Numbered from the stretch's first letter, positions 25,496 to 41,742 are shown. The stretch: 64,000 nt of DNA from Nitrosopumilus sp. (GCA_016125975.1 JAEFCZ010000006.1:4628-68627), one strand, 5' to 3'. Made by a program: numbers and translations. The notes: generated from the sequence alone by a model not told the origin.

Positions 25496-25574
25496 GGAAT
25501 TACTATTTTTTTATCAAATTTCTAGATTCTGACATTTCTCAAAGTTTAAATGGTTTTTAACTACGTTGGTTTCT

Positions 25575-25649
25575 GGGCTCATAGTCCAGGTCGGTTATGA
25601 CGTCGCCCTTACACGGCGAAGATCCGGGGTTCAAATCCCCGTGGGCCCA
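25575..25649 (+). tRNA. tRNA-Val(TAC), integration target
   Basis: GGGCTCA/TGGGCCC acceptor stem; anticodon arm TCGCC-CTTACAC-GGCGA. Confidence 0.96.
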
Positions 25650-25652
25650 TAC
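25634..25652 (+). repeat. att core copy 1 (tRNA-Val 3' end) AATCCCCGTGGGCCCATAC
   Basis: Identical 19-mer at 40482; 17-mer at 26908. Confidence 0.95.
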
Positions 25653-25692
25653 CATTTTAGTGACTGAAATAGACCCAAGTACTAGGAAGTTC

Positions 25693-26214
25693 ATGAGAAT
25701 AGAGTTGGATGCAACAGAAAATGACGCCTATACGAATTTTACAGAATCCATCAGGGGTGCAGAGACCAGACGTGGTTACATCAGAAACCTGACTCGATTT
25801 CTGGATATGATTCCAGATGATGTCTTTGAGCAATATCTTGGAGAACAACCAAAGAAGAAGTCAAGGGATGTAAAAGAAATGTCCCAGTTATTCATTGACT
25901 TGGCAAGAAAAGACATTGCTGTCACAAAATCCATTCTAAAATCCTATGTCAAAGAGGTAAAACAAGAGGTGGATTCCAATAAAATCTCCCCCAACACAGT
26001 ATCAAACAGACTAAAGCCAATCAAGGCATTGCTTTCTGCAAACGAAGTTGACGTGTCATGGAAACTAATCAACAAGATGCTGCCACGTAGAACAAAAAGT
26101 GAAGACCGTGCATACACAAGAGAAGAAATACACAAGATGATAGAGTGCTGTACCGATGTCACAGACAATCTGAAACTGATTGTAGTACAAACCAAAATGT
26201 ATCAGGCTCTGTAG
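25693..26214 (+). pseudogene. N-terminal fragment of tyrosine integrase
   Basis: Aligns by eye with integrase 2 (DAY..F.ESIR, TVSNRLKPIKALL.AN, DRAYT.EEI.KM); similarity ends near 26166, before any catalytic motif. Confidence 0.85.
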
Positions 26215-26907: not shown

Positions 26908-26924
26908 AATCCCCGTGGGCCCAT
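26908..26924 (+). repeat. att core copy 2 AATCCCCGTGGGCCCAT
   Basis: 17 nt identical to the tRNA-Val 3' end, followed 44 nt later by an integrase ATG. Confidence 0.95.
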
Positions 26925-26968
26925 GCTCTATATTGGTACTCAAATAGGACGCACTATATATACAAAAT

Positions 26969-28162
26969 ATGGAACTCACTGTGGATAAAGTAAATTCAAG
27001 AAATGATCCATACCAATTATTCTTAGATTCAATTCGTAGCACTGCAACTCTTAGACGATACAAGAATCTACTTTACACATTTCTCAAACTTATTCCAAAT
27101 CAACTTTACATTGATACTCTTGGAAAGACTCCTAAGAACAGAGATGCAAAAACTCTAGCTAAATTCTTTGTTGAATTGGCAAAAAAAGACATGGATAAAG
27201 CCTCTGATATCATTGCTGCATTCATCAAAGAAGACAGAAAACGTGTAGATTCAGGGGAGATAAGTTCTCAAACTATTCCAAACCACATCAAACCAATCAA
27301 AGTACTTCTTGATGCTAATCGTGTTCCAATTCACTGGAAGTCATTACACAAATTATTGCCACGAAGAGAAGCAAAATCAAAAGATAGAGCATATACTAAA
27401 GAAGAAATTCAAAAAATGCTTCAAGTTACAAATGACATTACTGATAAAGTAATAATTTTGATGTTCTCATCTGGAGGTTTCCGATTAGAATCTTGGGATT
27501 ATTTTACATGGAAAGATGTTATATTTTTCAAAGATGGTGAAAATTACAAAGGTGCAGCATTACGAATCTACAGAGGAGATCCTGAAAGTTATTTTACATT
27601 TATCACTCCAGAAGCTTGCAAAGCTCTAGAGATTTATCGTGAAAACTGGAAAGCCGACATTGGAGATTATCGAAAACCAGATGATCCTCTAATCAAATCT
27701 ATTCGATATCCTGTAGTCCGAAGACTAAACCAAAAAGGAGTGAGAAAGAGAATTGATACAGTTGTTTCAGCCATTGGTCTTTGACCTCCATTACCTCCAA
27801 ATCAAAAAAGACATGAGGTACAGCTTGATCATGGATTTAGAAAGTACTTCAATACAATGCTGAGGCGTGCAAAAGTAGATTTTCTAGACAAAGAAGACAT
27901 GATGGGTCACAAGGTAGGCTTGGAAAAACACTATGAACGATATCAGGAAGATGATTTTGAGAGATTCCCTGAGTATCAAAAGGCAATTCCATTCTTGACT
28001 ATCTCTGATGAGGAAAGAATACGTCTAGAAAATGAGAGGTTGAGAGAGGAAAAATCTGAATTAGAGAAACTAAATGAGACCAATAAGAAATTGATACAAG
28101 ACATGGATGATATGAAGTCCTTTAAGGAAAGAATTGAGGAACGATTGTCCAAGATTAATTAA
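26969..28162 (+). pseudogene. tyrosine recombinase/integrase with in-frame TGA at 27782-27784
   Basis: SSGGFRLE catalytic Arg upstream of the stop; the same frame resumes PPLPPNQKRHEVQLDHGFRKYF...MMGHKVGLEKHY. Confidence 0.9.
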
Positions 28163-28806
28163 ATTTTGAAATATTTTGTAAATGAATACACTGCCTCTCT
28201 ATCAAATTCTAACTCATATTCATACTCAGTTCTACCTAACAACATCTGATTCCCTATGTAATTTTCAAGTTCTATAGGAATGCCATGAGATGATTTAATT
28301 TTATTTCTTTTATTGTGTTCTTTCCAATGATTTTCTTCATCTGTTTTCATTACAATCTCTCCACAAAATTGGCAATACATATTGTTTTTTCCTATTAATA
28401 ATTCTAAATCATTTTTAATTCCTTCATCTGTTTTCTTTGAAGCAATTTTCATATTATCAAAACCAATCTGAATTTGTTGATATAGTTTTTCATCTGATTT
28501 TATAATTTTTAACCAATCTTTTACATTTGGTTTTGTTTTAAATCCTGTTTCACTATAAAAGTCATAAAAACTTGGTTGATATAACTTGAATACTTCTAAA
28601 AAGAATGCAAAGTTAATCATTGCATGAAATCCCTTAAGAAATTCTTCTGATTCAAATATTCCTAAAATTGTATTATTCTTTGAATGTTCTTGACTATTCT
28701 TGATTTCAATAGTGACTACTCTGTAGAATGTTTTGTATTTTAGAACAATGATATCTTTAGCTAGAATCTCCATATTGCTAAATACTTTGGCAAGAAATTC
28801 TATCAA
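28159..28806 (-). CDS. hypothetical protein with C2H2-like zinc finger
   Basis: CQFC-x11-HWKEH. Confidence 0.65.
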   Translation of the reverse strand: MIEFLAKVFSNMEILAKDIIVLKYKTFYRVVTIEIKNSQEHSKNNTILGIFESEEFLKGFHAMINFAFFLEVFKLYQPSFYDFYSETGFKTKPNVKDWLKIIKSDEKLYQQIQIGFDNMKIASKKTDEGIKNDLELLIGKNNMYCQFCGEIVMKTDEENHWKEHNKRNKIKSSHGIPIELENYIGNQMLLGRTEYEYELEFDREAVYSFTKYFKI

Positions 28807-28826
28807 TAATATTTCATCATAGTATT

Positions 28827-29820
28827 TTGTTAATGTATTCCATTTTTTTGAAATTATTGGTAGTACAATACGCCTTTGAGCAAAGTAATTCTACGTTAAG
28901 AAATACACAAGATTTTGTTTCAGAATCTAAATTTCTTACAAATTGGTTAGATGTTGAACATCAAGGATGGAAACTACCTGCAATATCAAAACCACATGAT
29001 TGGTGTGGGTTGTGGAAGACTATTGGATGTAATAGAGTAGATGTTCATGAAAAATTAGGTAAAGGAAGATTAACGTATGTAAAACAGTTTAGGCGATCTT
29101 GTTATCGTGCAAAATGCAAGTCCTGTTTTACTAATTGGATTGCAAGACAAGCTAATGTATCTACAAGAAGGATTGAAGCTTTTGAAAAAAAGTCAAAACA
29201 ACAACCAATTCATCTCATACTTGCAGTTCCTGCATCTCAAAGAAACCTACCAGTGAAACTATTACGTCAAAGAATGAGTCATATTCTAAAGCTTGGAAAC
29301 ATTCATGGAGCCTCTGTAATCTTTCATCCTTTCAAATTCAACAAGACTGAACGTAGATGGTATTCATCTCCACACTTTCATTTGGTGGGTTTTGGAAAAT
29401 CATCAGATATCAAAAATGCATTTGGACGATATAGTTGGTATGTCAAAGAGACAGAAGATCGAAAATCGGTATTTCAAACATTTTGCTATTTATTATCTCA
29501 TTGTGGGATTCAAAAAGGATATCAGACAGTAACTTGGTTTGGAAATCTCTCTTATAGCAAATTGAAGGTTGAAAAAGAGCCTAGAATTACCAAATGTCCT
29601 CTGTAATGGAGAATTTGAGGAAATTTACTATGAAGAGCCAATTCATCCCATAATTCCTCCTGATAAGCACTTTGAAGGAGCGGTAGAAGGAGAGGGATGG
29701 TACACTGTATTCACTGTAGAGTATGAAGAACCAAAGTATGAATATGCTCCAACTAGAGATTTAGATGAATTATTGAAAGGATTGACATTATCTAGGAAAT
29801 CTAATACATCTATTGTATAA
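28827..29820 (+). pseudogene. HUH-superfamily rolling-circle replication initiator (SNJ1/IS91-like), frameshifted near 29600
   Basis: N-terminal SCYRAKCKSC Zn motif; IHLIL, FHPF, PHFHLVG (HUH) and YLLSH motifs; KCPL|CNG split across frames. Confidence 0.75.
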
Positions 29821-29886
29821 CATAAAATATTGTTCTGGTATGATTACACATAACGCTTAAGTTCATACAAATGAACAAGTTATCTA

Positions 29887-30597
29887 ATGCCTATAATGTA
29901 CGTTGATGAATCTGGTTCTTTTCATCATAATGATAAAACAAAATATTTTGTTTTATCTGGTGTAGTTGTTTCAGATGATAAAATTAAACATCTGCAAACT
30001 GCTTCATATCAATACAAACTAAAACATTTCAATAATGAATACATAGATTCAGAAATACATACACATGATATTTACAAAGCAAAAGGTGATTTTACCAGTT
30101 TAACATTATCTCAAAAACAAGAACTATTACATGAATTGTATACTACAATTAATGAATTAGATATTTCTACTGTTTCAGTAATTATTGATAAAGACTCACT
30201 GAAAACTACTTACCCTACATGGAAAGTTTTCAACACTGCGTGGATATTTTTAATTGAAAGATTTGATAAAATTTTAGAAGAAAAATTTGATGATGCAAAA
30301 GGATCTATAAAAATAGATAAGAGCTCAAGTAGATTCCATAAAGATATTTTAGATATATTGAATGATTTACGAAAAAATGGAACTAGTTTTCAAAGAAAAG
30401 CATGCATTGATCATCGTGTATTTGTAGAATCTTCTGCCGTTGAGGGAATTCAAATTGCAGATGCTGTAGCCTATTGTTCATTTATGTATAAACAAAACCA
30501 TACTCCTTTTGCTAATTATTGGAATATGATTTATCCAAAATTCAGAAAAAGTGATTTTGGTACAGTATCGGGTTATGGTTTGAAAGAATTTCCATAA
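29887..30597 (+). CDS. DUF3800 family RNase H-fold protein
   Basis: MYVDESG, EIH, IKID and GIQIADAVA motifs, all intact. Confidence 0.88.
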   Translation: MPIMYVDESGSFHHNDKTKYFVLSGVVVSDDKIKHLQTASYQYKLKHFNNEYIDSEIHTHDIYKAKGDFTSLTLSQKQELLHELYTTINELDISTVSVIIDKDSLKTTYPTWKVFNTAWIFLIERFDKILEEKFDDAKGSIKIDKSSSRFHKDILDILNDLRKNGTSFQRKACIDHRVFVESSAVEGIQIADAVAYCSFMYKQNHTPFANYWNMIYPKFRKSDFGTVSGYGLKEFP

Positions 30598-30598
30598 T

Positions 30599-30669
30599 AA
30601 AAGACAAGAGTATGAACAAGGAACCCCCCGTTAACACACTCTCTCATAATGCGACCCGCATTACTTACC
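30599..30669 (-). ncRNA. candidate DUF3800-associated small RNA (two hairpins, U-tract)
   Basis: TTTATA box at 30693-30688; hairpin UAAUGCG/CGCAUUA; long hairpin AGAGUGUG.../...CAUACUCU whose G-U pairs form only on the minus strand; ends UCUUUU. Confidence 0.65.
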
Positions 30670-30850
30670 ATATAGTACCGTACTCGGTATAAATTATTAT
30701 CGAACCAATAATTCTACATTTGATAGCTAGTTCAATTCATTTTTTACATTTGTTTGTGTCTAAATTACCCTCAAAATCTATTTCTGGAATAGTACATTTA
30801 ACACAAAATCAGATACTATGCTTAAGTTTCAAAATTACATAGAATAATCA

Positions 30851-31324
30851 TTGTCAGATTATAGACCAAAGCATACAATTTTTGATAAAGAAAAATTCTT
30901 AGAAGAAAGGTCAAAGCTTGGAGGGTTAGCTCAAGAAGGTATGAAAACTACTGGAGGAACTGACATTGATTGGGTAATTGAGCATAGAGGCGGTTTTATT
31001 GTAATGGAAAACAAAACTTTCTCAAAAGATTGGATTAGACTCCCAGTAGGACAAATGATAACGTTTGGACAAATGTACAAGAAACTAAATGCAGATGGTA
31101 AATGTCATTTTCTAATTTTTGGGTTTGAATCTGATGTTGATTTTAAGAATCCTGAATCATTAGCTTGGTATTTTGATATGGAAGATTGGAAAAATGGAAA
31201 AATTTGTTCTAATAGAACAATTTCATTCAAAAAATTCGGAGTTCATAGAAGAGAAATGACCAAAATAACCTTGAAAGAATATAGAGAATTAATGGAAAAA
31301 TACTGGAAAGAATTTGAAAAATAA
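30851..31324 (+). CDS. PD-(D/E)XK nuclease-fold protein
   Basis: TDIDWVIEHRGGFIVMENK matches D-x-D...E-x-K. Confidence 0.7.
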   Translation: MSDYRPKHTIFDKEKFLEERSKLGGLAQEGMKTTGGTDIDWVIEHRGGFIVMENKTFSKDWIRLPVGQMITFGQMYKKLNADGKCHFLIFGFESDVDFKNPESLAWYFDMEDWKNGKICSNRTISFKKFGVHRREMTKITLKEYRELMEKYWKEFEK

Positions 31325-31371
31325 AAAATGTAAATCAAAACCTTTTTTCATACATAATTAAAGAAATATCA

Positions 31372-31971
31372 TTGAAAGAAGAAACTGATGATGTGATTGA
31401 TCTAGGTTTTGAGGATTATAAGAAAGCAATGAAAATTTTTAATGATGAAGAATTACCCACAAAAGATCCTCAAGAATTGCATTGGAGAGAACAACAAATT
31501 TTAGCACAAAGAATGTTTGATGATGGCCATACAATACAGGCTGTGATTATTCTTCACGGATTAATTGAAATTGAATTGAATAGAATTTGGATAATGATGT
31601 TAATTTGTAAAAGCAATGGAGATATTGAAAAAGTTGATCTTAAAGAAAGACATTATCTAGATTTAGTTGAATATTTTGAAAAAGAAAAAATTTTGGAGGA
31701 AAAAATGATTATAGACCTTAAGGAGTTTAATCAATTAAGGAACAGATTATCTCATAATCTCTATGGAATTAAACAAAGAACTCCGCATAAAACAGAATTG
31801 AAAAACAAATTTGAGCTTGGATTGTTAGTCTCTGGTTCTCTTCCAGTATTAGAATTGAAATATTTACATGATCAAGGAAAGAATAACGCCTTTGCAAAAA
31901 GATTCTTTGAAGCATTACAGGAAGAATCTGAAAAAGAATTAGAAGAAAAATATGGGGATAAACTTCTGTAA
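31372..31971 (+). CDS. HEPN-like domain protein
   Basis: Helical; AVIILHGLIE and FNQLRNRLSH (RxxxxH) motifs. Confidence 0.65.
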   Translation: MKEETDDVIDLGFEDYKKAMKIFNDEELPTKDPQELHWREQQILAQRMFDDGHTIQAVIILHGLIEIELNRIWIMMLICKSNGDIEKVDLKERHYLDLVEYFEKEKILEEKMIIDLKEFNQLRNRLSHNLYGIKQRTPHKTELKNKFELGLLVSGSLPVLELKYLHDQGKNNAFAKRFFEALQEESEKELEEKYGDKLL

Positions 31972-32072
31972 GCGTCCATTTCTATCCCCAAGAAAGGTTC
32001 AGACCTTTACGGATTCCAATCTATAGATCTTCCAAATTTTCAATCTGATTCATTCTAAAGGAAAATCTATTT

Positions 32073-32972
32073 TTATTTCCTTTTTACTATGTGTAATTCT
32101 TTTACCCTATTACGGATAGTCACAGCACTTATTCCAGAAATTTGAGCAATCCTTGTCTGTGAAACTTTCTCATGGTTATCTTGTATTGCGAGATAAACTG
32201 CAGCAGCTGCCATAGACATTGGATGCTTGCCAGACGTTATCCCTTTTTTCTGACTAAATTCCAGAATCTTTCTTGCATCTCGTTTTGTTTTTTCAGATAT
32301 GCCAGCTTCACTAGATATGCGAGATACAAATTCTTCTGGACTATAAGATGCTGATTGAACCGCATCAAGATTTGCAGATAAGAGGCGATAGACACGTTGA
32401 ATTACTTTCTTTTTTATTCCTGCAGCATCTGAAATGTCCTTTAACGTTCTGGGGGTATCGGTAATTCGACATGCCATGTATACCACTGCACACAACACCG
32501 ACTGGTTTGAACGACCATGTAGCAATCCCTTCTGTTCTACTTTTCTAAATAGATATGCTGATTTTTCTACAACATGCTCAGGTAATCCCAGTTTCGAGCG
32601 TATTCCATCAAGAAATGTAAATGCCTTGATGTATGATTGCTTGGTAAGTGCAGATCTACTATTTCTATCCCACATTCTTAGACGATAAAATGATCTCTTG
32701 TTTTGTCCTGATAGGGATTTTCCAGAAGAATCTCTGTTCTGAGCTTGAATTAAAGTAGACAACCCCATATCTGCCATTTTTAATGACATTTTTTGTCCCG
32801 TCCTTGCATTTTTCTGATATTCATCTGTCGTTTGAGCAGTATTTTCTGGTCCAAAATCAATGGCTTTTTCAAATAATACGACTCCACAATTACCACACAC
32901 TATCTCTCCAGTAATTGCATCTGTAACTTTGAAAAAATGCATACATGTATTATCCAAACGATTTATAGTCAT
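32073..32972 (-). CDS. tfb: transcription initiation factor IIB paralogue on the mobile element
   Basis: TGEIVCGNCG Zn ribbon, B-reader RLRMWD, two cyclin repeats, C-terminal HTH SQTRIAQISGISAVTIRNR. Confidence 0.95.
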   Translation of the reverse strand: MTINRLDNTCMHFFKVTDAITGEIVCGNCGVVLFEKAIDFGPENTAQTTDEYQKNARTGQKMSLKMADMGLSTLIQAQNRDSSGKSLSGQNKRSFYRLRMWDRNSRSALTKQSYIKAFTFLDGIRSKLGLPEHVVEKSAYLFRKVEQKGLLHGRSNQSVLCAVVYMACRITDTPRTLKDISDAAGIKKKVIQRVYRLLSANLDAVQSASYSPEEFVSRISSEAGISEKTKRDARKILEFSQKKGITSGKHPMSMAAAAVYLAIQDNHEKVSQTRIAQISGISAVTIRNRVKELHIVKRK

Positions 32973-33006
32973 ATGATAACAATTGGCATTGATTGAATTT
33001 TAACCA

Positions 33007-33030
33007 TAAGTGATTTTTTGTATAGTGCTA
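33007..33030 (-). promoter_or_regulatory. variant bipartite motif upstream of tfb (TAGCACTAT / AATCACTTA)
   Basis: Followed on the minus strand by TTAAAAT (33003-32997), 25 nt before the ATG. Confidence 0.5.
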
Positions 33031-33089
33031 AATCCAAAAACACAAAATTATTATCACTACTAAAAAAATAAATTTTGAGAATTAACGCC

Positions 33090-33647
33090 CTAATTCTTCA
33101 AATTTATTTTGATCTTCAATTTCTGGTTAATGTTTTCAATTACTTTAGATATTACAGTTGGACTATATGAAAAAAATCCTTTGTACTTTCCATCTCCCAT
33201 ATTTTCTGCAACCAAACCGAATGGACCTTTTGGACCCCGTGTTAGTACAATCCACATATCTGAAATGTTGGTTCCGTCACAACTGACTACATCTGTGGTT
33301 TTTGGAGGTTGAGGTGCTAGATGAGGATTGTTGAAATTGCCAATTATCCATGCCTTTGGAATTTTTTCAAGGATTTCTGTATAATGGTCTTTTACATACT
33401 TGTATCTCTCATCTGTTTCAAATGTGGCAACAAGCGGTGCATTATATTTTACCGCATAGTTTTCAAGCAGGATACTCAGTCGATATAGCTCTTTTCTTCC
33501 TTCTATGAAATTGACATACCCTGCATCAATGTATTCACTTAATTTCCATAAGATGTTGTGATCGGACAAATCAGTTAATTTTGTATCTGCCAGTCCTGAA
33601 AAATTTGACCAAATTTCTTGTATGAAACTACTGTATTGTTGACTCAT
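33090..33647 (-). CDS. DICT sensory-domain protein (paralogue 1)
   Basis: LS.LLE..A......LVATFE...Y..I, W.VLT.GP.G..GL.AE and GFFS.SP pattern. Confidence 0.75.
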   Translation of the reverse strand: MSQQYSSFIQEIWSNFSGLADTKLTDLSDHNILWKLSEYIDAGYVNFIEGRKELYRLSILLENYAVKYNAPLVATFETDERYKYVKDHYTEILEKIPKAWIIGNFNNPHLAPQPPKTTDVVSCDGTNISDMWIVLTRGPKGPFGLVAENMGDGKYKGFFSYSPTVISKVIENINQKLKIKINLKN

Positions 33648-33668
33648 GTGATTGTTTTGTACTTTTGA

Positions 33669-33703
33669 TATTTAACTAGTGATAAAATTATTTTCTAGTG
33701 CTA
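33669..33703 (-). promoter_or_regulatory. bipartite motif TAGCACTAG-N10-TATCACTAG abutting TTAAATA
   Basis: TATA box 22 nt upstream of ATG 33647; same architecture at 36813 and 38906. Confidence 0.75.
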
Positions 33704-33714
33704 ATTTTGTTAGG

Positions 33715-34260
33715 TTACTGAAGTGTAAATTTTGTACCCAAAATTTTACTCATCTTGCTAACTGCATGTCTGCAAACATTAGGATTAAGTGTGAAAAATC
33801 CTCTAAATTTACCACTTTCATATTCTTCAGCTATCAACCCAAATGGGCCGTATGGTCCTCTAGTAATTACACTCCAGACATCAATTAGAGGTGTATTTTT
33901 ACAATTAATCACATCAATTTTTGGTGGGGTGTCAATCTTTGTTTTACCATAATCTGCAACAACAGTAATTTTAGGAATTTGTTCAATCATTCTTTGATAT
34001 CTTTTTTCTACAAATTTGTATCGTGCAATTTTCTCAAAACTTGCTAGCAATGGTTGATTGTTTTCTTGAGCATATTTTTCAATTAGTTTACTAATATGGA
34101 ATAATTGCTTTCTTTTTGCGTGAAAATTATGATACCCTGCTTCGATAAATTTATCCATGCTCCACATTGAAAGAAGTGATGGATCATCATCATGCCATTC
34201 TGCAAGTTGTGGAAAATCTTCCCAAACTTCGCCTACAAAACCTTCATACTTTCCATGCAT
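33715..34260 (-). CDS. DICT sensory-domain protein (paralogue 2)
   Basis: Clear tandem paralogue of 33090-33647 (shared RGP.GPFGL.AE and GFF motifs). Confidence 0.75.
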   Translation of the reverse strand: MHGKYEGFVGEVWEDFPQLAEWHDDDPSLLSMWSMDKFIEAGYHNFHAKRKQLFHISKLIEKYAQENNQPLLASFEKIARYKFVEKRYQRMIEQIPKITVVADYGKTKIDTPPKIDVINCKNTPLIDVWSVITRGPYGPFGLIAEEYESGKFRGFFTLNPNVCRHAVSKMSKILGTKFTLQ

Positions 34261-34359
34261 ATATTTGGAAAGTTTAAAATCAGATATAAGTTAATCTTTC
34301 AATCTTGATGATTTTAATTCTAACAAATTGTTTTTATGTTGTAAAATCACATCTCATAC

Positions 34360-34764
34360 ATGGGACGATATGAAAAAGTTCTCAATATGTTAATGGATTA
34401 TGATGAATCCATTAGACTTGCAATCATTAGTAATACTTCAGGCGACATATTATGGAATTCAAAAAGATCTGCTGCAAAACTTCAAGTCCCAATAACTGAA
34501 ACTAAGAAAGCATTAAAACGTGAATCCGAAGATTGGATTGACAGATGTAAGGCAGCAGACCGCACTGCATTGGGAGCCCCATTATACCATATCACATCTT
34601 TTGAAAAAACAAAAAGAGTAACTCTTCCAATTGATGCATTTCATTTGTTATTTTTGAGTGTCGATAACACACCTATGAAAAATACAAAAAAGAAAAGTTA
34701 TGGGCGAATGGTTGAGATGGGAAAAATTCTATCCATTGTAGATTTTGTAAATACGTTTGAATAG
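34360..34764 (+). CDS. DUF6659-like roadblock/longin-fold protein
   Basis: YEK.L.ML.D.D..IR.A...G...SFEK..R.T.P pattern. Confidence 0.7.
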   Translation: MGRYEKVLNMLMDYDESIRLAIISNTSGDILWNSKRSAAKLQVPITETKKALKRESEDWIDRCKAADRTALGAPLYHITSFEKTKRVTLPIDAFHLLFLSVDNTPMKNTKKKSYGRMVEMGKILSIVDFVNTFE

Positions 34765-34870
34765 AAATTTAAATTTTAATCGTTTCTATCAAGTCTTGTT
34801 TTTTGGAATTAATTTTAACACTAGACTAAAAATTTGCAATATTTATTAACAGAAATGTATCATAATATTT

Positions 34871-35275
34871 GTGGATAAATACGAAAAACTCCTTGACATG
34901 TTAATGGATTTTGATGATATCGTTAGATTTGCAGCCGTAACTGATCAAAATGGGGAAATTTTATGGAACAGCCAGAGAACAGGATTGAAAAACATTGTTC
35001 CAGTTTCTGAAACCAAACAAACTATTTCAAGAGCACTAAATGCTTGGAGAGAAAATGCAGGAGTTAAGAAAAACATAGGTTCAGGATTGTACTCTATTGC
35101 ATCATATGAAAAAATTAAGAGGATTACCGTTCCTTTGGATGATGGCAAATTATTGTTTTGTAGTGTAAGTAACCAACCGTTAAAATCTGCTTTGACTAAA
35201 AGAAAAAGCTATGGCCATCTTGCAGATATGGGCAAAATTCTATCCATAGTAGATTTCATCAAATCCCAAAAATGA
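34871..35275 (+). CDS. DUF6659-like roadblock/longin-fold protein (tandem paralogue)
   Basis: Shares MGKILSIVDF C-terminus and overall pattern with 34360-34764. Confidence 0.7.
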   Translation: MDKYEKLLDMLMDFDDIVRFAAVTDQNGEILWNSQRTGLKNIVPVSETKQTISRALNAWRENAGVKKNIGSGLYSIASYEKIKRITVPLDDGKLLFCSVSNQPLKSALTKRKSYGHLADMGKILSIVDFIKSQK

Positions 35276-35411
35276 GAAAATAAAATTTATTGGTAAAAAC
35301 TTTTTTTAAATATTAAGATGAAAAAACCAATTTGATTGTCTTTTATTTTTCAAGATTTTCAGCATACCTTGTTTCAACAGAGTTGATGCATTTCTCATGC
35401 TGATTTTTCAT

Positions 35412-36194
35412 CTAAGACCAAGTCACAACTTTTTCTCCATGTTTAGAAAAAGCTAAAAACAATCCCAATGTTATACGTCTATTTGCTCTCACAGGAAGTA
35501 TCTCGTGATAATAAATTGGATTAATTATCACCAAATCCCCTTGGTTTGGCTTTATCTTCACAGATTGATTGCAATCTGAAATCACGTCTTTTGAATATCC
35601 AAAATCAATATTACGAAACTTTTCATCTGATTTTTTCCATGATTTTTTGTGCAGTACTAATTCTCCTCCTTTTTGGGATTGTTGAATGTATAATACAGTA
35701 GAAAGTTGTATTGGAAATTTAGAAACATCGAAATTTCTTGCTTCAAAACTTGCATTGTCTCTATGTATTGGAGCAAAATCTCCTAACTCATGCAGTCTGA
35801 TTACTCCGCAAGCATATTTTTTCCCAGTTTCAACTGCAATTGTGACCTGTTTTCCAGGAAAGAACACTTCTAATGTCTTGTGAATTTTTTTCCTTGGGTC
35901 CTCCAATCCTGAAAAAACCTGACGTACTGTTTTTCTTAATGCATCAGCTTGAGTAAAATATTCTGCTTTTCTAGAAATAAATGATACAAGTGAAACACCT
36001 ATTTTTTTCATTTTTTTATTACTTTCAAAAGCCCTTATCTCAATTCTTTTGGATATTGTTTTACATGAATCGTTATTGTAAAAATTTCTAATTATTAATG
36101 CAGGTGAATCTCCCGTAATGATTTTCTCTAATGAATTTTTATTTTGAGTTATATCTTTGTACTCTATTTCTATTGGATTCCATTGTAAATCCAT
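35412..36194 (-). CDS. 2OG-Fe(II) oxygenase superfamily protein
   Basis: HRD...H facial triad, GGEL, PNQGDL...YYHEI and RRIT motifs. Confidence 0.8.
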   Translation of the reverse strand: MDLQWNPIEIEYKDITQNKNSLEKIITGDSPALIIRNFYNNDSCKTISKRIEIRAFESNKKMKKIGVSLVSFISRKAEYFTQADALRKTVRQVFSGLEDPRKKIHKTLEVFFPGKQVTIAVETGKKYACGVIRLHELGDFAPIHRDNASFEARNFDVSKFPIQLSTVLYIQQSQKGGELVLHKKSWKKSDEKFRNIDFGYSKDVISDCNQSVKIKPNQGDLVIINPIYYHEILPVRANRRITLGLFLAFSKHGEKVVTWS

Positions 36195-36479
36195 CTAATA
36201 TCCGCCTTGTCCTGAGTGTGAAACAACTGATGTGAGAGTTCCATCATTTTCTTTGTCTTTAATTTCACATTTCACAAATGTTCCGCCTAAATTTTCTTCT
36301 ATTTGCTCTTTTGTACACTCTTTGGGATCAACAGGGAGACTCATTATGTCTGTTTGAATAATATTTATTTTCTCAATTTCCGAATAGTCGTTTTTGTTTC
36401 CATCTTTTTTGTGTGTTACATTTAACTCAAAAATCTGACCTGACAAAACTTTTCCTACATTTCCCCAAATTATATCCAT
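36195..36479 (-). CDS. hypothetical protein
   Basis: GGAGG upstream of the ATG; abuts the oxygenase gene. Confidence 0.65.
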   Translation of the reverse strand: MDIIWGNVGKVLSGQIFELNVTHKKDGNKNDYSEIEKINIIQTDIMSLPVDPKECTKEQIEENLGGTFVKCEIKDKENDGTLTSVVSHSGQGGY

Positions 36480-36526
36480 AACCTCCTTTGTATTTTCTAA
36501 TATTTATCAAACAAATTTTTTGCAAT

Positions 36527-36555
36527 CTAGTGGTAACTCATTGAACTTAGTGATA
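36527..36555 (-). promoter_or_regulatory. variant direct repeat TATCACTAA / TACCACTAG upstream of the 36479 gene
   Basis: 20-nt spacing; about 19 nt further from the TATA box than the canonical copies. Confidence 0.45.
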
Positions 36556-36631
36556 ACATTTAGAATTCATTATTGGATGATTTTAGGGATTCATAGTGTA
36601 CAACAATAATTTATCACATGAATAGAAATGA

Positions 36632-36763
36632 TCAAACAGTGTATTGATAGATTTTACACGATACATCTAACATCTCACAATCAATTGAACAAAACTGGCT
36701 TTGTCTATCGTGAAATTCCTCTTTACAAGTCGTGCACTTGTTTGCAACTTTAAACTTTATCAA
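36632..36763 (-). CDS. 43-aa TRASH-like zinc-binding protein (missed by ORF track)
   Basis: MIKFKVANKCTTCKEEFHDRQSQFCSIDCEMLDVSCKIYQYTV; CxxC...FCSxxC motif. Confidence 0.55.
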   Translation of the reverse strand: MIKFKVANKCTTCKEEFHDRQSQFCSIDCEMLDVSCKIYQYTV

Positions 36764-36812
36764 AAACAATTATCCTTGTTTGCATATAAGGTGGAGATAA
36801 AAAATCAATTGT

Positions 36813-36847
36813 TAGCACTAGTCTAAATATTATCACTAGGTTAAATA
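36813..36847 (+). promoter_or_regulatory. bipartite motif TAGCACTAG-N9-TATCACTAG-G-TTAAATA
   Basis: TATA box 22 nt upstream of ATG 36869. Confidence 0.75.
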
Positions 36848-36868
36848 TGATAAATAGAAAATCAACAT

Positions 36869-37054
36869 ATGGCTGAAGAACAAGAATGGGCAAATTTGCT
36901 TGCAGAAGTTTTTGACAAACTCACTGAGAAACACGCCACAATCACTTATGATTTTGGAAATCTTGAGATGAAAGGTAAGGTTGAAAGAAATGGCAAAGTA
37001 ATCCCAACAGGAACAGTTACCTTATCAGGGAAACTGACCATTACTGCAAAATAA
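36869..37054 (+). CDS. small hypothetical protein
   Basis: Clean 61-aa ORF downstream of the motif promoter. Confidence 0.7.
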   Translation: MAEEQEWANLLAEVFDKLTEKHATITYDFGNLEMKGKVERNGKVIPTGTVTLSGKLTITAK

Positions 37055-37061
37055 AGAGGAT

Positions 37062-37433
37062 GTGGGAATGAAAGAAACTAATCTCCCCGTCAATTTTTTA
37101 TCTTCTCTTGAAAGCGGAAACTTGACTATACTTGCTGATGACATTCCATCAATTAATTTCACTGCAACAAAAAATATTCGAACAATTGACATCATTGATA
37201 TTCCAATTAAAATTTCAGACAAGCCAGGATTGATAAAACAATTATCAGAAGCAAAGGGACTTGCAAAAAAACTAAAACAACAAAACATTACACTTGAAGT
37301 TAAATTGAAAGGAGAAACTGTTCTTAAACTGGGAGAAAAAGCAAATCCAAAACTTGCAAAGATCATTACACTCAGCAGTGATATAGAAATTACTGATTTG
37401 AAAAAACTAAAAAAATTAAGCGATGCGATTTAA
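37062..37433 (+). CDS. hypothetical protein
   Basis: Operonic with 36869-37054. Confidence 0.7.
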   Translation: MGMKETNLPVNFLSSLESGNLTILADDIPSINFTATKNIRTIDIIDIPIKISDKPGLIKQLSEAKGLAKKLKQQNITLEVKLKGETVLKLGEKANPKLAKIITLSSDIEITDLKKLKKLSDAI

Positions 37434-37486
37434 TTTGAATTATACTCGAATTTAATTATGAGAATAATAGATTAAAAGATTGAAGA

Positions 37487-38866
37487 ATGTCTCAAAAATC
37501 AACCACAAACATTGCTACACAAAATAAACCATATAATATTCTAGTTACGGGTGCGACTGGATTTATCGGAACTCGCCTTATATCATATTTTTCAGATCGT
37601 GGATATAAAATAAAAGGAATGTCTAGAAGAAAAATTTCCGATTCAAATAATGTAAAGTATGTTCAAGCTGATGTTTTTGATCAAAACAAACTTGAAAGAG
37701 CATTGGATGGGATCGAGGTTGCATATTATTTACTCCATTCTATGGAGGGAAGTAAAGAACACTGGAAAGAATTTGCATCTAGGGAAAGAATTCAGGCAAG
37801 GAATTTTCTTCAAGCAGCAACCAAAGTTGGAGTTAAAAGAATAATCTATCTTGGTGGCTTAGTCAATGATAGTCTTGATTTATCTCCACACATGAAGAGT
37901 CGTAAAGAGGTAGGTGAAATTCTAGCATCAGGAAATATTCCAGTAACTGAACTTCGAGCATCATTGATCATTGGAGCTCAAGGAGGATCTTATGCTATGT
38001 TAAGATATTTGGTAGAAAGATTGCCTGTCATGGTTTGTCCTTCATGGGTAAAATCCATTGCACAACCAATAGCAGTTGATGATGTTATATCATATTTGGC
38101 CGGATGCATGGAACATTCAGAGACTACAGGCAAGATCTACGAAATAGGAGGTAAAGACAAAATGACATATGAACAACTCATGAGAGTTTATGCCAAATAC
38201 CTTGACAAGAAACTTTTTGTAATCCAAATTCCTTTTCTTACAACTAGACTTTCCTCATATTGGGTTGATTTGATAACTCCAGTAAAGGCTTCTCTTGCTA
38301 GACCTTTGATTGATAGCCTAGTTCATGATACAGTAGTTACTGATGATTCAATAATTAAGATAATTCCATTACAACTCAAATCAGTTAGGGAATCTATTGA
38401 TATTGCAACAAAAGAAATCAGGAACAATCCTCCAGAAATTCCTCCAAAAGAAGAACGTTCTGGATTCAAAATTAATCAAAATCTTTTATGTGCAGTACTA
38501 ATTGCCATGGCAATAGTTGGAACTACTTATTATTGGCTTGATGACAGGCCAGAAATTTTTGAGCCTCTTTGGATCTTAGGTGGAATATTATGGTATATTA
38601 CAATAATATTTGCAATAATTTTTGTCAGAAACAAAACTCGATTAGGATTTCTCATAGCAGGAATAGTGTCTTGGATAACTTTGGTGTTTTGGTTGTTTGA
38701 TAACTTTTATGTTTTATTTGATGCTTCTTTGATAATTGTTCAACCAAATGAATTGATTACTATTAGAAATTTTATTTGGGCTGCTCTATCTGCACTTGCA
38801 GTAATTGCCTCCCATAATACATTTCACAAGATTATTGATTATCAATACAAAGGAAGACCTGTCTAG
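37487..38866 (+). CDS. atypical SDR (YbjT-like) NAD(P)-binding protein with C-terminal TM helices
   Basis: VTGATGFIG, YYLLHS, IYLGG and QPIAVDDV motifs; four C-terminal TM helices. Confidence 0.85.
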   Translation: MSQKSTTNIATQNKPYNILVTGATGFIGTRLISYFSDRGYKIKGMSRRKISDSNNVKYVQADVFDQNKLERALDGIEVAYYLLHSMEGSKEHWKEFASRERIQARNFLQAATKVGVKRIIYLGGLVNDSLDLSPHMKSRKEVGEILASGNIPVTELRASLIIGAQGGSYAMLRYLVERLPVMVCPSWVKSIAQPIAVDDVISYLAGCMEHSETTGKIYEIGGKDKMTYEQLMRVYAKYLDKKLFVIQIPFLTTRLSSYWVDLITPVKASLARPLIDSLVHDTVVTDDSIIKIIPLQLKSVRESIDIATKEIRNNPPEIPPKEERSGFKINQNLLCAVLIAMAIVGTTYYWLDDRPEIFEPLWILGGILWYITIIFAIIFVRNKTRLGFLIAGIVSWITLVFWLFDNFYVLFDASLIIVQPNELITIRNFIWAALSALAVIASHNTFHKIIDYQYKGRPV

Positions 38867-38905
38867 TGATTTTAGTGAAATTATCTTTTGTACCTAAAGT
38901 AATTT

Positions 38906-38940
38906 TAGCACTAGATAGAAATTTTATCACTAGTTAAATA
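38906..38940 (+). promoter_or_regulatory. bipartite motif TAGCACTAG-N10-TATCACTAG abutting TTAAATA
   Basis: TATA box 21-22 nt upstream of ATG 38962. Confidence 0.75.
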
Positions 38941-38961
38941 ATATTTTGGCCAAGTATAACT

Positions 38962-39138
38962 ATGAATTTACAGTATATCGACAGAAAAGAACTAGTGGCT
39001 GATTGCCCTAATTGTAGGAGACAATCGCTTGTACTGGTGACTACAATGAAATCCAAAGGCAAGGATTTGTTGGCATGTAAAAGTTGTAAAATGGCAATAT
39101 TAGTGCAGGAACTCAAAAAACAACTGTTTACAGTCTAA
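38962..39138 (+). CDS. 58-aa zinc-ribbon protein (missed by ORF track)
   Basis: MNLQYIDRKELVADCPNC...LACKSC...; stop overlaps the next start (TAATG). Confidence 0.75.
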   Translation: MNLQYIDRKELVADCPNCRRQSLVLVTTMKSKGKDLLACKSCKMAILVQELKKQLFTV

Positions 39139-39509
39139 TGGAGGAATTAGTATTGCCACATGTAGTTTTTGACAAAAGAATTAATCTTGAGAATTTTTCA
39201 AACCAATTCTGTATTGTTTTTCAAAAGCAGCCATTTTTGATCAAATTAATGGATGTATTTCTTGATAAAGAAAAAAGGACCGCACTCATTCCAACAGTTG
39301 TAATTGATAAAAAACATCAGCAATTTCTAATTGAACTATCCACAAGAAAAGAAAAGACAACAGTAAGATTGTATCCTGCTACAGATCCAGAAAAAACAAT
39401 TGGTGTTAAAACTGCACTTGGATTAGTGGCAAATAATCTTCTTGAATCTTTCCCTAATCTCAAAATTACTCGAACTAACATAATTGATTTCATTCCTGAA
39501 AGAAAATGA
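39138..39509 (+). CDS. hypothetical protein
   Basis: Translationally coupled on both sides. Confidence 0.7.
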   Translation: MEELVLPHVVFDKRINLENFSNQFCIVFQKQPFLIKLMDVFLDKEKRTALIPTVVIDKKHQQFLIELSTRKEKTTVRLYPATDPEKTIGVKTALGLVANNLLESFPNLKITRTNIIDFIPERK

Positions 39510-39835
39510 GGATTTGGGATATTTCACCTTCAAAATTGTGTCGTAATCATCTGTTGGGAGAACACCGAGAACTTCATGCTATGTGGGTTGTTATTACAGA
39601 AAACAAGAAAGGATATTCATTACATCCTGAAACTTTACGATGGAAAGGTAAACTCAAAGCAATGTATCTTAGACACGAGCAATTAGTTTTTGAAATGACT
39701 AAACGTGGTTATAATCACAAAAGCCCTCTTGACAAGAGAAAAGCAACAGGTAATGAAAAACAATATGATTATGTTGATTCAATAAGGCAACAGATCACTA
39801 TTTTGAAGAAAAAAGACTGTTCATGTAATGTCTAA
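39506..39835 (+). CDS. pyrimidine dimer DNA glycosylase / T4 endonuclease V family
   Basis: MRIW...LCRNHLLGEHRELH and EMTKRGYNH motifs. Confidence 0.8.
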   Translation: MRIWDISPSKLCRNHLLGEHRELHAMWVVITENKKGYSLHPETLRWKGKLKAMYLRHEQLVFEMTKRGYNHKSPLDKRKATGNEKQYDYVDSIRQQITILKKKDCSCNV

Positions 39836-39974
39836 TACCTCTATTTTAAATCCCAAAATGGTAAAGGATCTCATGTGATGTGGAATCTATAAAAATATCT
39901 ACTATTTCTCATAACAGTTCAAGACAATACAAAATTGAATCTAAGGTTATAACTTTGTAATTTGAATACTTTGT

Positions 39975-40444
39975 ATGGTTGATGTAAAGATTACAAACCA
40001 AATACTGGAAAGCATTTTGCAATTGTAGGTGATATTAACAGTATTTTAGCATCAAAAGATGATACTGAGGGAAAATACAGTGTTGTTGAAATTAAAATAT
40101 TTCCAGACGGTGGGCCTATGCCACATATTCAAACTCGAGAACATGAGGGGTTCTACGTTTTAGAAGGTGAAGTGTCATTTACTGTAGATCAAAAAGAGAT
40201 AATTGCACCACAGGGAACTTTTCTTAATATTCCTCCAAATGTAATCCATAGTTTCAAGAATAACACAAACCAATTGGCAAAAATATTGGTGATTTTAGCT
40301 CCAGGAGGTTTAGAAAACTTGTTTGTTGAAGTAGGTGACAGGGTATCTGATCCAACCATTCCTCCTCCTCCGATGTCTGAAGAAAAGATGAAAAAATTTG
40401 TTGATATAATGTCTGATTATGGAGTAGAAATTAAACATCATTAA
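39975..40444 (+). pseudogene. cupin (quercetinase-like) gene with a 1-nt frameshift near 39997
   Basis: ATG 39975 MVDVKIT is out of frame by -1 with KPNTGKHFAIVGD...PHIQTREHEGFYVLEG...IHSF. Confidence 0.7.
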
Positions 40445-40481
40445 TGTTCTGCGTCCATTTTCATCCCCAAAATGGTGGCTG

Positions 40482-40500
40482 AATCCCCGTGGGCCCATAC
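40482..40500 (+). repeat. att core copy 3 (attR) AATCCCCGTGGGCCCATAC
   Basis: 19 nt identical to the tRNA-Val 3' end plus 3 downstream nt. Confidence 0.95.
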
Positions 40501-40894: not shown

Positions 40895-41242
40895 TTACTT
40901 AAAAGAACGTACTTTTCTGACAACTTTGTTATGATCTAGAGAAGCAGTGGTAGTGATATACAGAATATGATTTTTTCCTGCAGGAATAACTAGTCTCTTG
41001 ACTTTGTCATATTCTGCAACAACATATTTGCATGGCCCTAGAGTTCTCATCAGTTTTTTTCGTTGTTTCCAATCTTTTGCAGCAGCCTTTAGTGATGCCA
41101 TACTTTGTTTCTTTGACACCAAAAGATTCACCTTCTTAGAACGTGCTGAGAATAGTAAATTGCCTTTGAGATCACAGACACTTACTACTCTTACAGAAGG
41201 ACTGACTTTCAAAATTTTTTCAACAGCGTCCTGAATTTCCAT
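40895..41242 (-). CDS. roadblock/DUF6659-like protein
   Basis: VRVVSVCDLKG...AEYDKVKRLVIP pattern. Confidence 0.7.
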   Translation of the reverse strand: MEIQDAVEKILKVSPSVRVVSVCDLKGNLLFSARSKKVNLLVSKKQSMASLKAAAKDWKQRKKLMRTLGPCKYVVAEYDKVKRLVIPAGKNHILYITTTASLDHNKVVRKVRSFK

Positions 41243-41373: not shown

Positions 41374-41742
41374 TTGGATTACGAAAAATTTTGCTCACAG
41401 ATTTTAGATGCTGATCCCAAAATCCGATTTGCTACTGTTTATGATGAATGGGCAGTTCGTGTAGGCGGTGGTATGAAACCAGGAGTAAAAAACTTACTCT
41501 CTGATCATGCAGAAAAAGAATTAGTAAATCTTTCAATTCTGGATTGGAAAGCACGTAAAGACATGTCAAAATGGCTTGGAAAAACTATCTACACACTTGG
41601 TGAATATGATAAGGTTAAACGATTCTCATTTTATCTTGGTGATGATCACTTACTTCTTGTAAGTTCTGAAAAAGATCATGATACTAATACTGTAGTTGAC
41701 GAAGTCATTCGATTATATTATGAAAATCAAGATAAAAACTGA
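41374..41742 (+). CDS. DUF6659-like protein
   Basis: YEKFC..IL..DPKIRFA...GG...EYDKVKRFSF pattern. Confidence 0.75.
   Translation: MDYEKFCSQILDADPKIRFATVYDEWAVRVGGGMKPGVKNLLSDHAEKELVNLSILDWKARKDMSKWLGKTIYTLGEYDKVKRFSFYLGDDHLLLVSSEKDHDTNTVVDEVIRLYYENQDKN

Follow-up and report, generated by a model that had tools for sequence, protein, structure and literature searches.

The stretch of DNA studied here (the window) comprises 64,000 nucleotides of Nitrosopumilus sp. (GCA_016125975.1, JAEFCZ010000006.1:4628-68627) and contains a mobile element integrated at a tRNA-Val gene, which encodes a paralogue of the archaeal transcription factor TFB together with cargo genes driven from bipartite promoters. 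An initial annotation had proposed that the promoter motif is private to the element and is read by its TFB or by another factor binding both repeats. We found that the repeated unit, TTRNCACTAG, recurs at promoters across the family Nitrosopumilaceae and that its presence follows not the TFB but F4, a predicted cobalamin (B12)-binding protein of 280 aa related to the photoreceptors CarH/LitR. Our best reading, to which we assign a probability of roughly 60%, is that TTRNCACTAG serves as the operator of a light-controlled regulon, that this regulon includes the TFB clade, possibly as a second-tier factor, and that the element brought in from another genus a second cluster, tfb and five operator-bearing transcription units, now controlled in trans by the F4 of the host.

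The promoter motif in the window and in its genome

Below, G000 is the genome to which the window belongs (assembly of 1.79 Mb); the window is its contig C7, and C25 and C48 are further contigs. Other genomes have handles of the form G0xx, genera are numbered g1-g27, and F-numbers are families of open reading frames (ORFs) obtained in this analysis by clustering the ORFs of C25, C48 and the window with those of 14 retrieved loci.

Three cargo promoters in the window match TAGCACTAG-N9/10-TATCACTAG-N0/1-TTAAATA exactly, as initially annotated (Table 1), and the full pattern gave no match in 100 dinucleotide-preserving shuffles. At each of the three sites the end of the TATA box lies 21 nt from the ATG, and no Shine-Dalgarno sequence was found at the first genes behind them. 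The proximal repeat abuts the TATA box and does occupy the position of the TFB recognition element (BRE). Weaker variants noticed upstream of tfb, of the gene at 34871 and of the operon at 36479 are genuine too, since they are retained at the orthologous promoters of other genera. Orthologues of site 2 (F6 promoters, six genomes) retain repeats and TATA box with a variable spacer.

The observation that this architecture is absent from promoters outside the element holds within the window only, since the same genome has at least six more sites on C25 and C48 (C25:34934(+), 38655(-), ~42926/42929(-), 42995(+), 44157(+); C48:1897(+)). A relaxed pattern (CACTAG 18-23 nt before TTWWATA) gave 11 matches in the whole of G000 versus 4 for the reversed pattern used as a control, and the TTNN prefix is present in nine of the 11 (three in the window, five on C25, one on C48). 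Eight of these nine sites are followed by an ORF, at a TATA-to-start distance of 20-22 nt in seven cases and behind a 56-nt leader in one (C25:~42926/42929). All 9-10 sites of G000 are confined to three gene clusters; the motif thus marks a compact regulon, probably including tfb, and to this extent the initial interpretation is borne out.

The half-sites are weakly enriched genome-wide: TATCACTAG was observed 37 times versus ~23 expected and TAGCACTAG 14 times versus ~12, the expected numbers being composition-based estimates. Specificity resides only in the bipartite or TATA-anchored arrangement, not in the half-sites. A general BRE consensus from 57 leaderless-type promoters of G000 was nearly devoid of information 5' of the TATA box.

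The cluster is present a third time, in partial decay, on the C48 contig (4.5 kb). There the gene for the small Zn-finger protein F22 (see below) is frameshifted (C48:705-883), and an F16-like gene behind a perfect site (C48:1897-1960) has no ATG, GTG or TTG start.

Conservation of the repeat across Nitrosopumilaceae

We surveyed 151 Nitrosopumilaceae genomes of 27 genera with a strict pattern (CACTAG-N12/13-CACTAG-N0/1-TTWWATA). It was found in 38 genomes belonging to 13 genera, and the reversed control pattern gave no match. The unit derived from 45 unique sites is TT[A/G]NCACTAG, i.e. the 10-bp TTRNCACTAG; the TT at -4/-3 of each hexamer, which the pattern does not impose, is present in 40-45 of the 45. 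The units form a direct repeat with copies 18-19 bp apart, the proximal one placed at the BRE, directly against the TATA box. Between orthologous promoters repeats and TATA box are constant and spacers differ, and the motif is carried by non-homologous transcription units (F6, F7/F1, F16, F17, F11, F21, F3, F4).

A distal repeat ~19-21 bp upstream of the TATA box is common to all promoter classes. The promoters of tfb, F8, F19 and F9(-F13) have no repeat at the BRE position, and those of F4 itself read CACTAG-N13-GCATTAG-TTAWATA in seven loci. Five genera (g14, g3, g7, g17, g20) have a single site that drives F16(-F22-F4) or F1, with F4 adjoining or within ~8 kb.

The motif tracks F4 and not the TFB clade

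Orthologues of the window TFB (at least 52% identity) are present in 18 genomes, 12 of which have the motif, and 26 of the 38 motif genomes (24 at a looser cut-off) lack the clade. No cluster-clade TFB lies near the site in these genomes; their nearest TFB genes are at least 2.5 kb away and show the housekeeping, C25b-type pattern, and the proximal TTATCACTAG or TTAGCACTAG still abuts the TATA box. Together with the sites on C25 and C48, this shows that the motif is private neither to the element nor to its TFB. The initial annotation had itself named a motif common in genomes without this TFB as refuting its proposal, and in Nitrosopumilaceae this is what is seen.

F4, in contrast, is encoded in 36 of the 38 motif genomes versus 30 of the 113 without the motif (odds ratio ~50, p = 3e-14 in a Fisher test that ignores kinship among genomes). 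In the motif genomes its gene usually adjoins the site and frequently belongs to an operon that the motif drives. F4 remains predictive of the motif where the TFB clade is missing (odds ratio 88), and the TFB carries no further information among genomes that have F4 (p = 0.25).

The 60-aa Cys-rich Zn-finger protein F22 (C25:45271-45447) was considered as another discriminating factor and rejected: its family is multi-copy, with up to 27 members per genome, and occurs in 150 of the 151 genomes. Several F22-family copies contain an in-frame TAG.

F4 is a candidate B12 photoreceptor regulator

F4 is encoded outside the window, with two copies in G000 (C25:43050-43883 and C48:961-1797). Its Pfam matches follow the order B12-binding_2 (PF02607, 9.6e-12) and Rossmann-type B12-binding (PF02310, 2.8e-11), and both cobalamin motifs are present: Wx9EH, which in CarH/LitR lies over the upper face of adenosylcobalamin, as IGDEWATGKISIATEH, and (E/D)xHxxG, whose His is the lower ligand there, as GEEHHLG. 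Among 44 diverse homologues (mean column identity 34%) residues W128, E138, H139, E173 and H175 are at least 90% conserved, and the Gly of ExHxxG is highly conserved as well. A first AlphaFold2 model, built with 26 close homologues, was used for a Foldseek search, and nearly all of its top 50 PDB matches were CarH/LitR cobalamin-binding domains or photocobilins (E ~1e-10); against viral models Foldseek returned only flavodoxin-like matches. The N-terminus of the first model was unreliable (predicted local distance difference test score, pLDDT, 36-64). With the 44 diverse homologues the mean pLDDT rose to 91, and residues 2-39 were predicted as a three-stranded antiparallel sheet (pLDDT ~90) in place of the MerR-type winged helix, which F4 lacks. 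Database annotation of the protein is inconsistent ('histidine kinase', 'methionine synthase', 'cobalamin-binding'), and our literature search found no paper describing it.

The N-terminal module of F4 is basic, nearly invariant and rare (119 clusters among 1.84 billion representatives). Elsewhere (P0210, P0217, P0214) this ~40-aa module is joined to an HNH nuclease, duplicated in tandem or part of proteins of 170-180 aa from low-GC organisms, the C-terminal domain of these last proteins having no assignment. Because of the nuclease fusion and the tandem pair, the module would suit a nucleic-acid-binding role, short of proof.

Five metagenome contigs of 30-69% GC that encode distant homologues of F4 were compared. 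CACTAG is present in the intergenic DNA flanking F4 on four of the five (three distinct homologues), and on two contigs a full bipartite site with TATA box drives operons that end in F4, again with NmrA-like neighbours. In organisms of 66-69% GC, distant F4 homologues are flanked by a shared word, G(T/G)GCACTAGGATG (L063 2400-2460; L067/L068 ~2941), which suggests that conservation of the recognition core may reach well outside Nitrosopumilaceae.

The cluster TFB as a probable member of the regulon

TFBs associated with the motif-bearing cluster form a clade separate from the housekeeping TFBs (support 100/99) with two subclades, X1 and X2. The closest paralogue of the window TFB in G000 is encoded on C25 (56% identity versus 40-44% to the housekeeping TFBs); in the tree, the window protein groups with those of a different genus (G091, G030), which is consistent with import by the element. 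It has the two cyclin repeats and the helix-turn-helix (HTH) of the family, but not the CxxC...CxxC ribbon and the conserved B-reader: its Zn ribbon is degenerate (C-x-H...C-x2-C; Zn_Ribbon_TF at 25.2 bits, below the cut-off of 29), and its B-reader reads GPENTAQ, not GPEWRSF, with the EWRSF motif absent. The recognition helix is SAVTIRNRVKEL versus TEVTIRNRYKGL in housekeeping TFBs. The alignment shows the same features for the cluster TFBs as a group (SAVTIRNR(V/T) versus TEVTIRNRY, degenerate ribbon, no EWRSF). Judged by these features, the window protein is homologous to TFB and probably departs from the standard form.

In 17 of the 18 genomes with the clade, the TFB lies within 7 kb of F4. 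Promoters of the X2 operons (F15-TFB-F22) carry TT[AG][GC]CACTAG 19-21 nt before the TATA box, and X1 promoters (window, G091, G030, G073) read TTAGCAC(T/C)AT-N17-19-GGTTAAAAT. Since its own promoters have the repeat at the distal position, the cluster TFB belongs to the regulon, and on the element the regulon, with its own TFB, is probably self-contained and autoregulated. The clade is present in 13 of 13 genomes with at least two strict sites versus 1 of 25 with a single site. It marks the expanded regulon but is dispensable for the motif, and it may cooperate or act at a second tier.

Directly upstream of the X2 TFBs (C25:44213-44359; L055, L057, L058, L059) is F15, a TFIIB-type Zn-ribbon mini-protein of 50-54 aa (C-x2-C...C-x2-C). 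The ribbon of the X2 TFBs has lost Cys ligands; these may be split TFBs, with the ribbon supplied in trans by F15. The X1 TFB of G073 (L054, G073:C1 7248-8125) is broken into ORFs of 177 and 68 aa, and the motif sites flanking it are perfect.

Probable import of the cluster by an element integrated at tRNA-Val

Three copies of the tRNA-Val 3' end lie in the window (Table 1). Homology of the left flank ends at the tRNA end in at least 30 genomes of the same genus, the right flank is placed elsewhere in relatives, and in G079 both flanks are found 4.8 kb apart. From the repeats and this comparison of flanks, 26908-40500 is therefore a 13.6-kb insert at a tRNA site that varies among relatives. 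Both tfb and the motif-bearing genes lie within these borders, and the designation of the TFB as element-encoded is thus reasonable. The ORFs adjacent to the two left attachment (att) copies look like N-terminal fragments of tyrosine recombinases, a provisional assignment; a Pfam scan found no integrase domain in them.

The window has no homologue of F4, F22 or F15, so the cargo of the element is presumably controlled in trans by the F4 of the host, encoded on C25. Two further members of the F8 family (115-134 aa) lie just beyond the right att copy, at 40895-41242 (-) and 41374-41742 (+), and the family is thus present in both the host flank and the element.

Table 1. Positions of genes, promoters and integration borders in the window
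Feature	Position	Strand	Evidence or remarks
tRNA-Val(TAC), integration target	25574-25650	+	ARAGORN
Left att copy, tRNA-Val 3' end, 19 nt (AATCCCCGTGGGCCCATAC)	25634-25652	+	Repeat search
Second copy of tRNA-Val 3' end, 17 nt	26908-26924	+	Divides 1.3-kb remnant from 13.6-kb element
271-aa ORF directly after att copy	26969-27784	+	Paralogue of ORF 25597-26214 (clustering, family F139); no Pfam match
tfb paralogue, 299 aa, cluster TFB clade, subclade X1	32073-32972	-	Pfam TFIIB PF00382 4.3e-38, two cyclin repeats
tfb promoter	32997-33030	-	Degenerate distal repeat TTAGCACTAT, 18 nt, weak TATA box TTAAAAT; kept in X1 orthologues G091, G030, G073
F11, 185 aa, function unassigned; first gene behind site 1	33090-33647	-	tfb starts 117 nt downstream
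Motif site 1	33669-33703	-	TAGCACTAG-N10-TATCACTAG-TTAAATA
Promoter of gene 34871-35275	34816-34824	+	Single distal repeat TAACACTAG, ~19 nt before TATA-like box; kept in G102 orthologue
F8, 134 aa	34871-35275	+	Family clustering
Operon: F9 (94 aa), F13 (260-aa 2-oxoglutarate (2OG)-Fe(II) oxygenase, WelO5-like)	35412-36479	-	Pfam PF22814 5.6e-37; pair conserved in 7 loci
F9-F13 operon promoter	36527-36555	-	TATCACTAA-N11-TACCACTAG, both one unit further upstream; nearer repeat 18 nt before TATA box
Motif site 2	36813-36847	+	TAGCACTAG-N9-TATCACTAG-G-TTAAATA
Operon: F6 (61 aa), F5 (123 aa), F1 (459-aa NmrA-like NAD(P)-binding, C-terminal membrane domain)	36869-38866	+	Pfam NmrA/Epimerase
Motif site 3	38906-38940	+	TAGCACTAG-N10-TATCACTAG-TTAAATA
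Operon: F21 (58-aa Zn-ribbon), F2 (123 aa), F27 (109-aa pyrimidine-dimer DNA glycosylase)	38962-39835	+	Pfam Pyr_excise 1.8e-26; Zn-ribbon matches weak
Third copy of tRNA-Val 3' end, 19 nt, right border	40482-40500	+	Repeat search

A model of light regulation and its alternatives

The most likely binder of the repeats is, we infer, F4 and not the TFB. F4 would be a one-component regulator that joins its basic three-stranded beta-sheet N-terminal domain to an adenosylcobalamin module of the CarH/LitR type. By analogy with CarH, B12-loaded oligomers of F4 would in the dark occupy the repeats over BRE and TATA box and block access of TBP and TFB; in the light the cofactor would be photolysed, the oligomer would fall apart and the promoters would fire. 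The cluster TFB could then be a light-induced initiation factor of a second tier, and cargo of the element would be served in trans by the host F4, presumably the C25 copy.

Several observations weigh against this model. DNA binding by the F4 N-terminal domain is a prediction: residues 1-69 have no Pfam match at E <= 10, and a profile of the domain found no match among PDB sequences. The sign of regulation is uncertain, because the shared distal site and the lack of a BRE repeat at some promoters suit an activator too, and the distal-site geometry would also suit recruitment of a TFB. The distribution of the cluster TFB between genomes with several sites and with one leaves room for its contribution to the expanded regulon. 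G091 has two perfect sites and an X1 TFB, with no F4 seen in a locus that ends at a contig end, and the F22-like Zn-finger is linked as tightly as F4 and could be a DNA-binding partner. Finally, the Fisher p-values for co-occurrence are descriptive only and overstate independence, because the genomes are phylogenetically related.

In a variant that we hold tentatively and consider rather unlikely as a whole, a B12 photoreceptor would occupy the distal repeat by means of a DNA-binding domain of a new, beta-sheet kind, promoters without a purine-rich BRE would be served by the cluster TFB or recruit it, and elements would spread the TFB with operator-tagged repair packages under the resident photoreceptor. 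If true, a photoreceptor paired with a TFB would be described for the first time, as would an archaeal regulon extended by a mobile element via operator matching.

Another protein (F22, the Zn-ribbon mini-proteins F15 and F21 or an unlinked regulator) might read the repeats, with F4 acting only as a B12/light sensor through protein contact, as AerR does with CrtJ. Stand-alone B12 sensors acting through a partner are known from papers, AerR is among the PDB matches of F4, and the N-terminal domain of F4 has no demonstrated DNA-binding homologue; moreover, the closest F22 orthologues are always beside F4 or the cluster TFB, and F22-like genes stand divergently at a motif promoter in g20 and g26. 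We nevertheless regard a separate binder as improbable. The near-universal F22 family does not discriminate by its presence, being found in all genomes but one, and on C48, where F22 is frameshifted, the neighbouring promoter keeps its site. The basic and nearly invariant N-terminal module of F4, HNH-fused elsewhere, and the retention of CACTAG near distant F4 homologues also argue for F4 itself.

The view that the proximal repeat is a specialized BRE recognized by the C-terminal HTH of the element TFB, or of its clade, giving a private regulon like that of a sigma factor on a mobile genetic element (MGE), accounts for the exact BRE position of this repeat. It would also fit the well-supported clade with its specific recognition-helix changes and divergent Zn ribbon and B-reader, the almost invariable location of cluster TFBs inside the motif-bearing cluster, their presence in every genome with at least two sites, and G091. 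We consider it decidedly unlikely all the same. The repeat cannot be only a BRE, because its distal copy lies far outside the reach of TFB; the VTIRNR core of the recognition helix is unchanged; tfb promoters have no repeat at the BRE position; and most motif genomes lack the clade, several having no TFB gene close by, with TTATCACTAG/TTAGCACTAG still at the TATA box. Of the two drivers initially proposed for the regulon, the factor binding both repeats is thus better supported than a TFB reading a private BRE.

That the motif is simply promoter DNA inherited through duplication and transfer of the cluster, with no dedicated regulator, is highly improbable: the window cluster was acquired horizontally, as a paralogue of that on C25, and several sites stand at orthologous promoters, but the site is also found at the non-homologous genes listed above, in organisms of 30-69% GC, with repeats and TATA box fixed while spacers and flanks diverged across 13 genera and with no match to the control pattern.

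Gene content of the motif-bearing clusters

The gene cluster, as defined by ORF clustering of the loci, is conserved across genera. Besides TFB (F0) and F4, the B12 protein, it includes the NmrA-like membrane protein F1, the F6-F5 operon of small proteins (61 and ~123 aa, function unassigned), the 76-aa membrane protein F7, the 94-aa protein F9 with the 2OG oxygenase F13, the PNPOx-like proteins F10/F20, the amine-oxidase/CrtI-like flavoprotein F12, the secreted protein F16, the DNA photolyase F18, the set F21-F2-F27 (Zn ribbon, a protein without assigned function, pyrimidine-dimer glycosylase), and F11 and F17, to which no function is assigned. By sequence similarity, targets of the motif would be ultraviolet (UV)-repair, photoprotection and redox genes, in the window those for the glycosylase, the NmrA-like protein and the 2OG oxygenase, and in related clusters those for the photolyase and the PNPOx-like and CrtI-like proteins.

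A paralogue of F1 with 71% identity lies directly behind the C25 motif site at ~42926/42929. This NmrA-like gene (C25:41459-42837, minus strand) is split into ORFs of 362 and 71 aa, probably by a frameshift. The element copy (37487-38866) has no such break, and with it the element may have supplanted a host gene in decay.

Comparison with known systems

The closest known systems are CarH and class I LitR of Thermus thermophilus, Myxococcus xanthus and Bacillus megaterium (PDB 5C8A/5C8D/5C8E). F4 shares with them the B12 module of a four-helix bundle and a Rossmann domain with Wx9EH and (E/D)xHxxG, and CarH cobalamin-binding domains are its best structural matches. Direct repeats overlapping the core promoter are likewise the candidate target, and F4 is apparently autoregulated, within a regulon with photolyase, UV-repair and CrtI-like genes. 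In place of the MerR HTH, however, F4 has a 40-aa three-stranded beta-sheet domain; its putative units of 10 bp are 18-19 bp apart, whereas those of CarH are tandem units of 11 bp; and the repeats overlap the BRE and TATA box of an archaeon and not a -35 box. CarH binds its operator in the dark in an adenosylcobalamin-dependent manner and dissociates in the light, and TTRNCACTAG is, by comparison, a candidate operator. The light response of Myxococcus combines a B12 photoreceptor with an alternative sigma factor, the extracytoplasmic function factor CarQ.

Among archaeal factors, Sulfolobus TFB3 is a truncated co-activator without a cyclin core that acts in the crenarchaeal UV response (PMC6101591). 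Like the cluster TFB, it is an alternative TFB paralogue tied to the response to UV or light damage and is probably itself induced (PMC6101591). The TFB described here is, unlike TFB3, full length, with both cyclin repeats and a degenerate ribbon and B-reader. We know of no photoreceptor or shared operator for TFB3.

TFIIB homologues have been described on integrated elements of thaumarchaea, mainly conjugative ones, where they adjoin parB and no promoter motif is linked to them (Krupovic et al. 2019, PMC6563490). Here, too, tfb is on an element integrated at a thaumarchaeal tRNA gene, but this TFB comes from the chromosomal clade of a conserved photoprotection cluster and arrived with operator-bearing cargo. 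The co-inheritance of an extra basal-factor paralogue with similarly built promoters resembles phage and MGE sigma factors with private promoters. The promoter element described here, however, is also present in genomes without the factor, and half of it is beyond the reach of TFB.

Significance for ammonia-oxidizing archaea

Ammonia-oxidizing archaea are among the most abundant microbes of the ocean, and light inhibits them. Our search of the literature for a light sensor or regulon in these organisms, for CarH-like proteins or for their transcriptomes under light found nothing relevant. The present analysis offers a concrete regulon open to testing, with an operator of 10 bp, some ten promoters in each genome, a B12 photoreceptor as candidate regulator and a TFB clade of its own. 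It would be a case of archaeal B12-based photoregulation through a DNA-binding domain other than MerR and of an archaeal TFB paralogue embedded in an environmental-response regulon. The element, in turn, would be an archaeal mobile element whose cargo is pre-wired to a regulator of its host.

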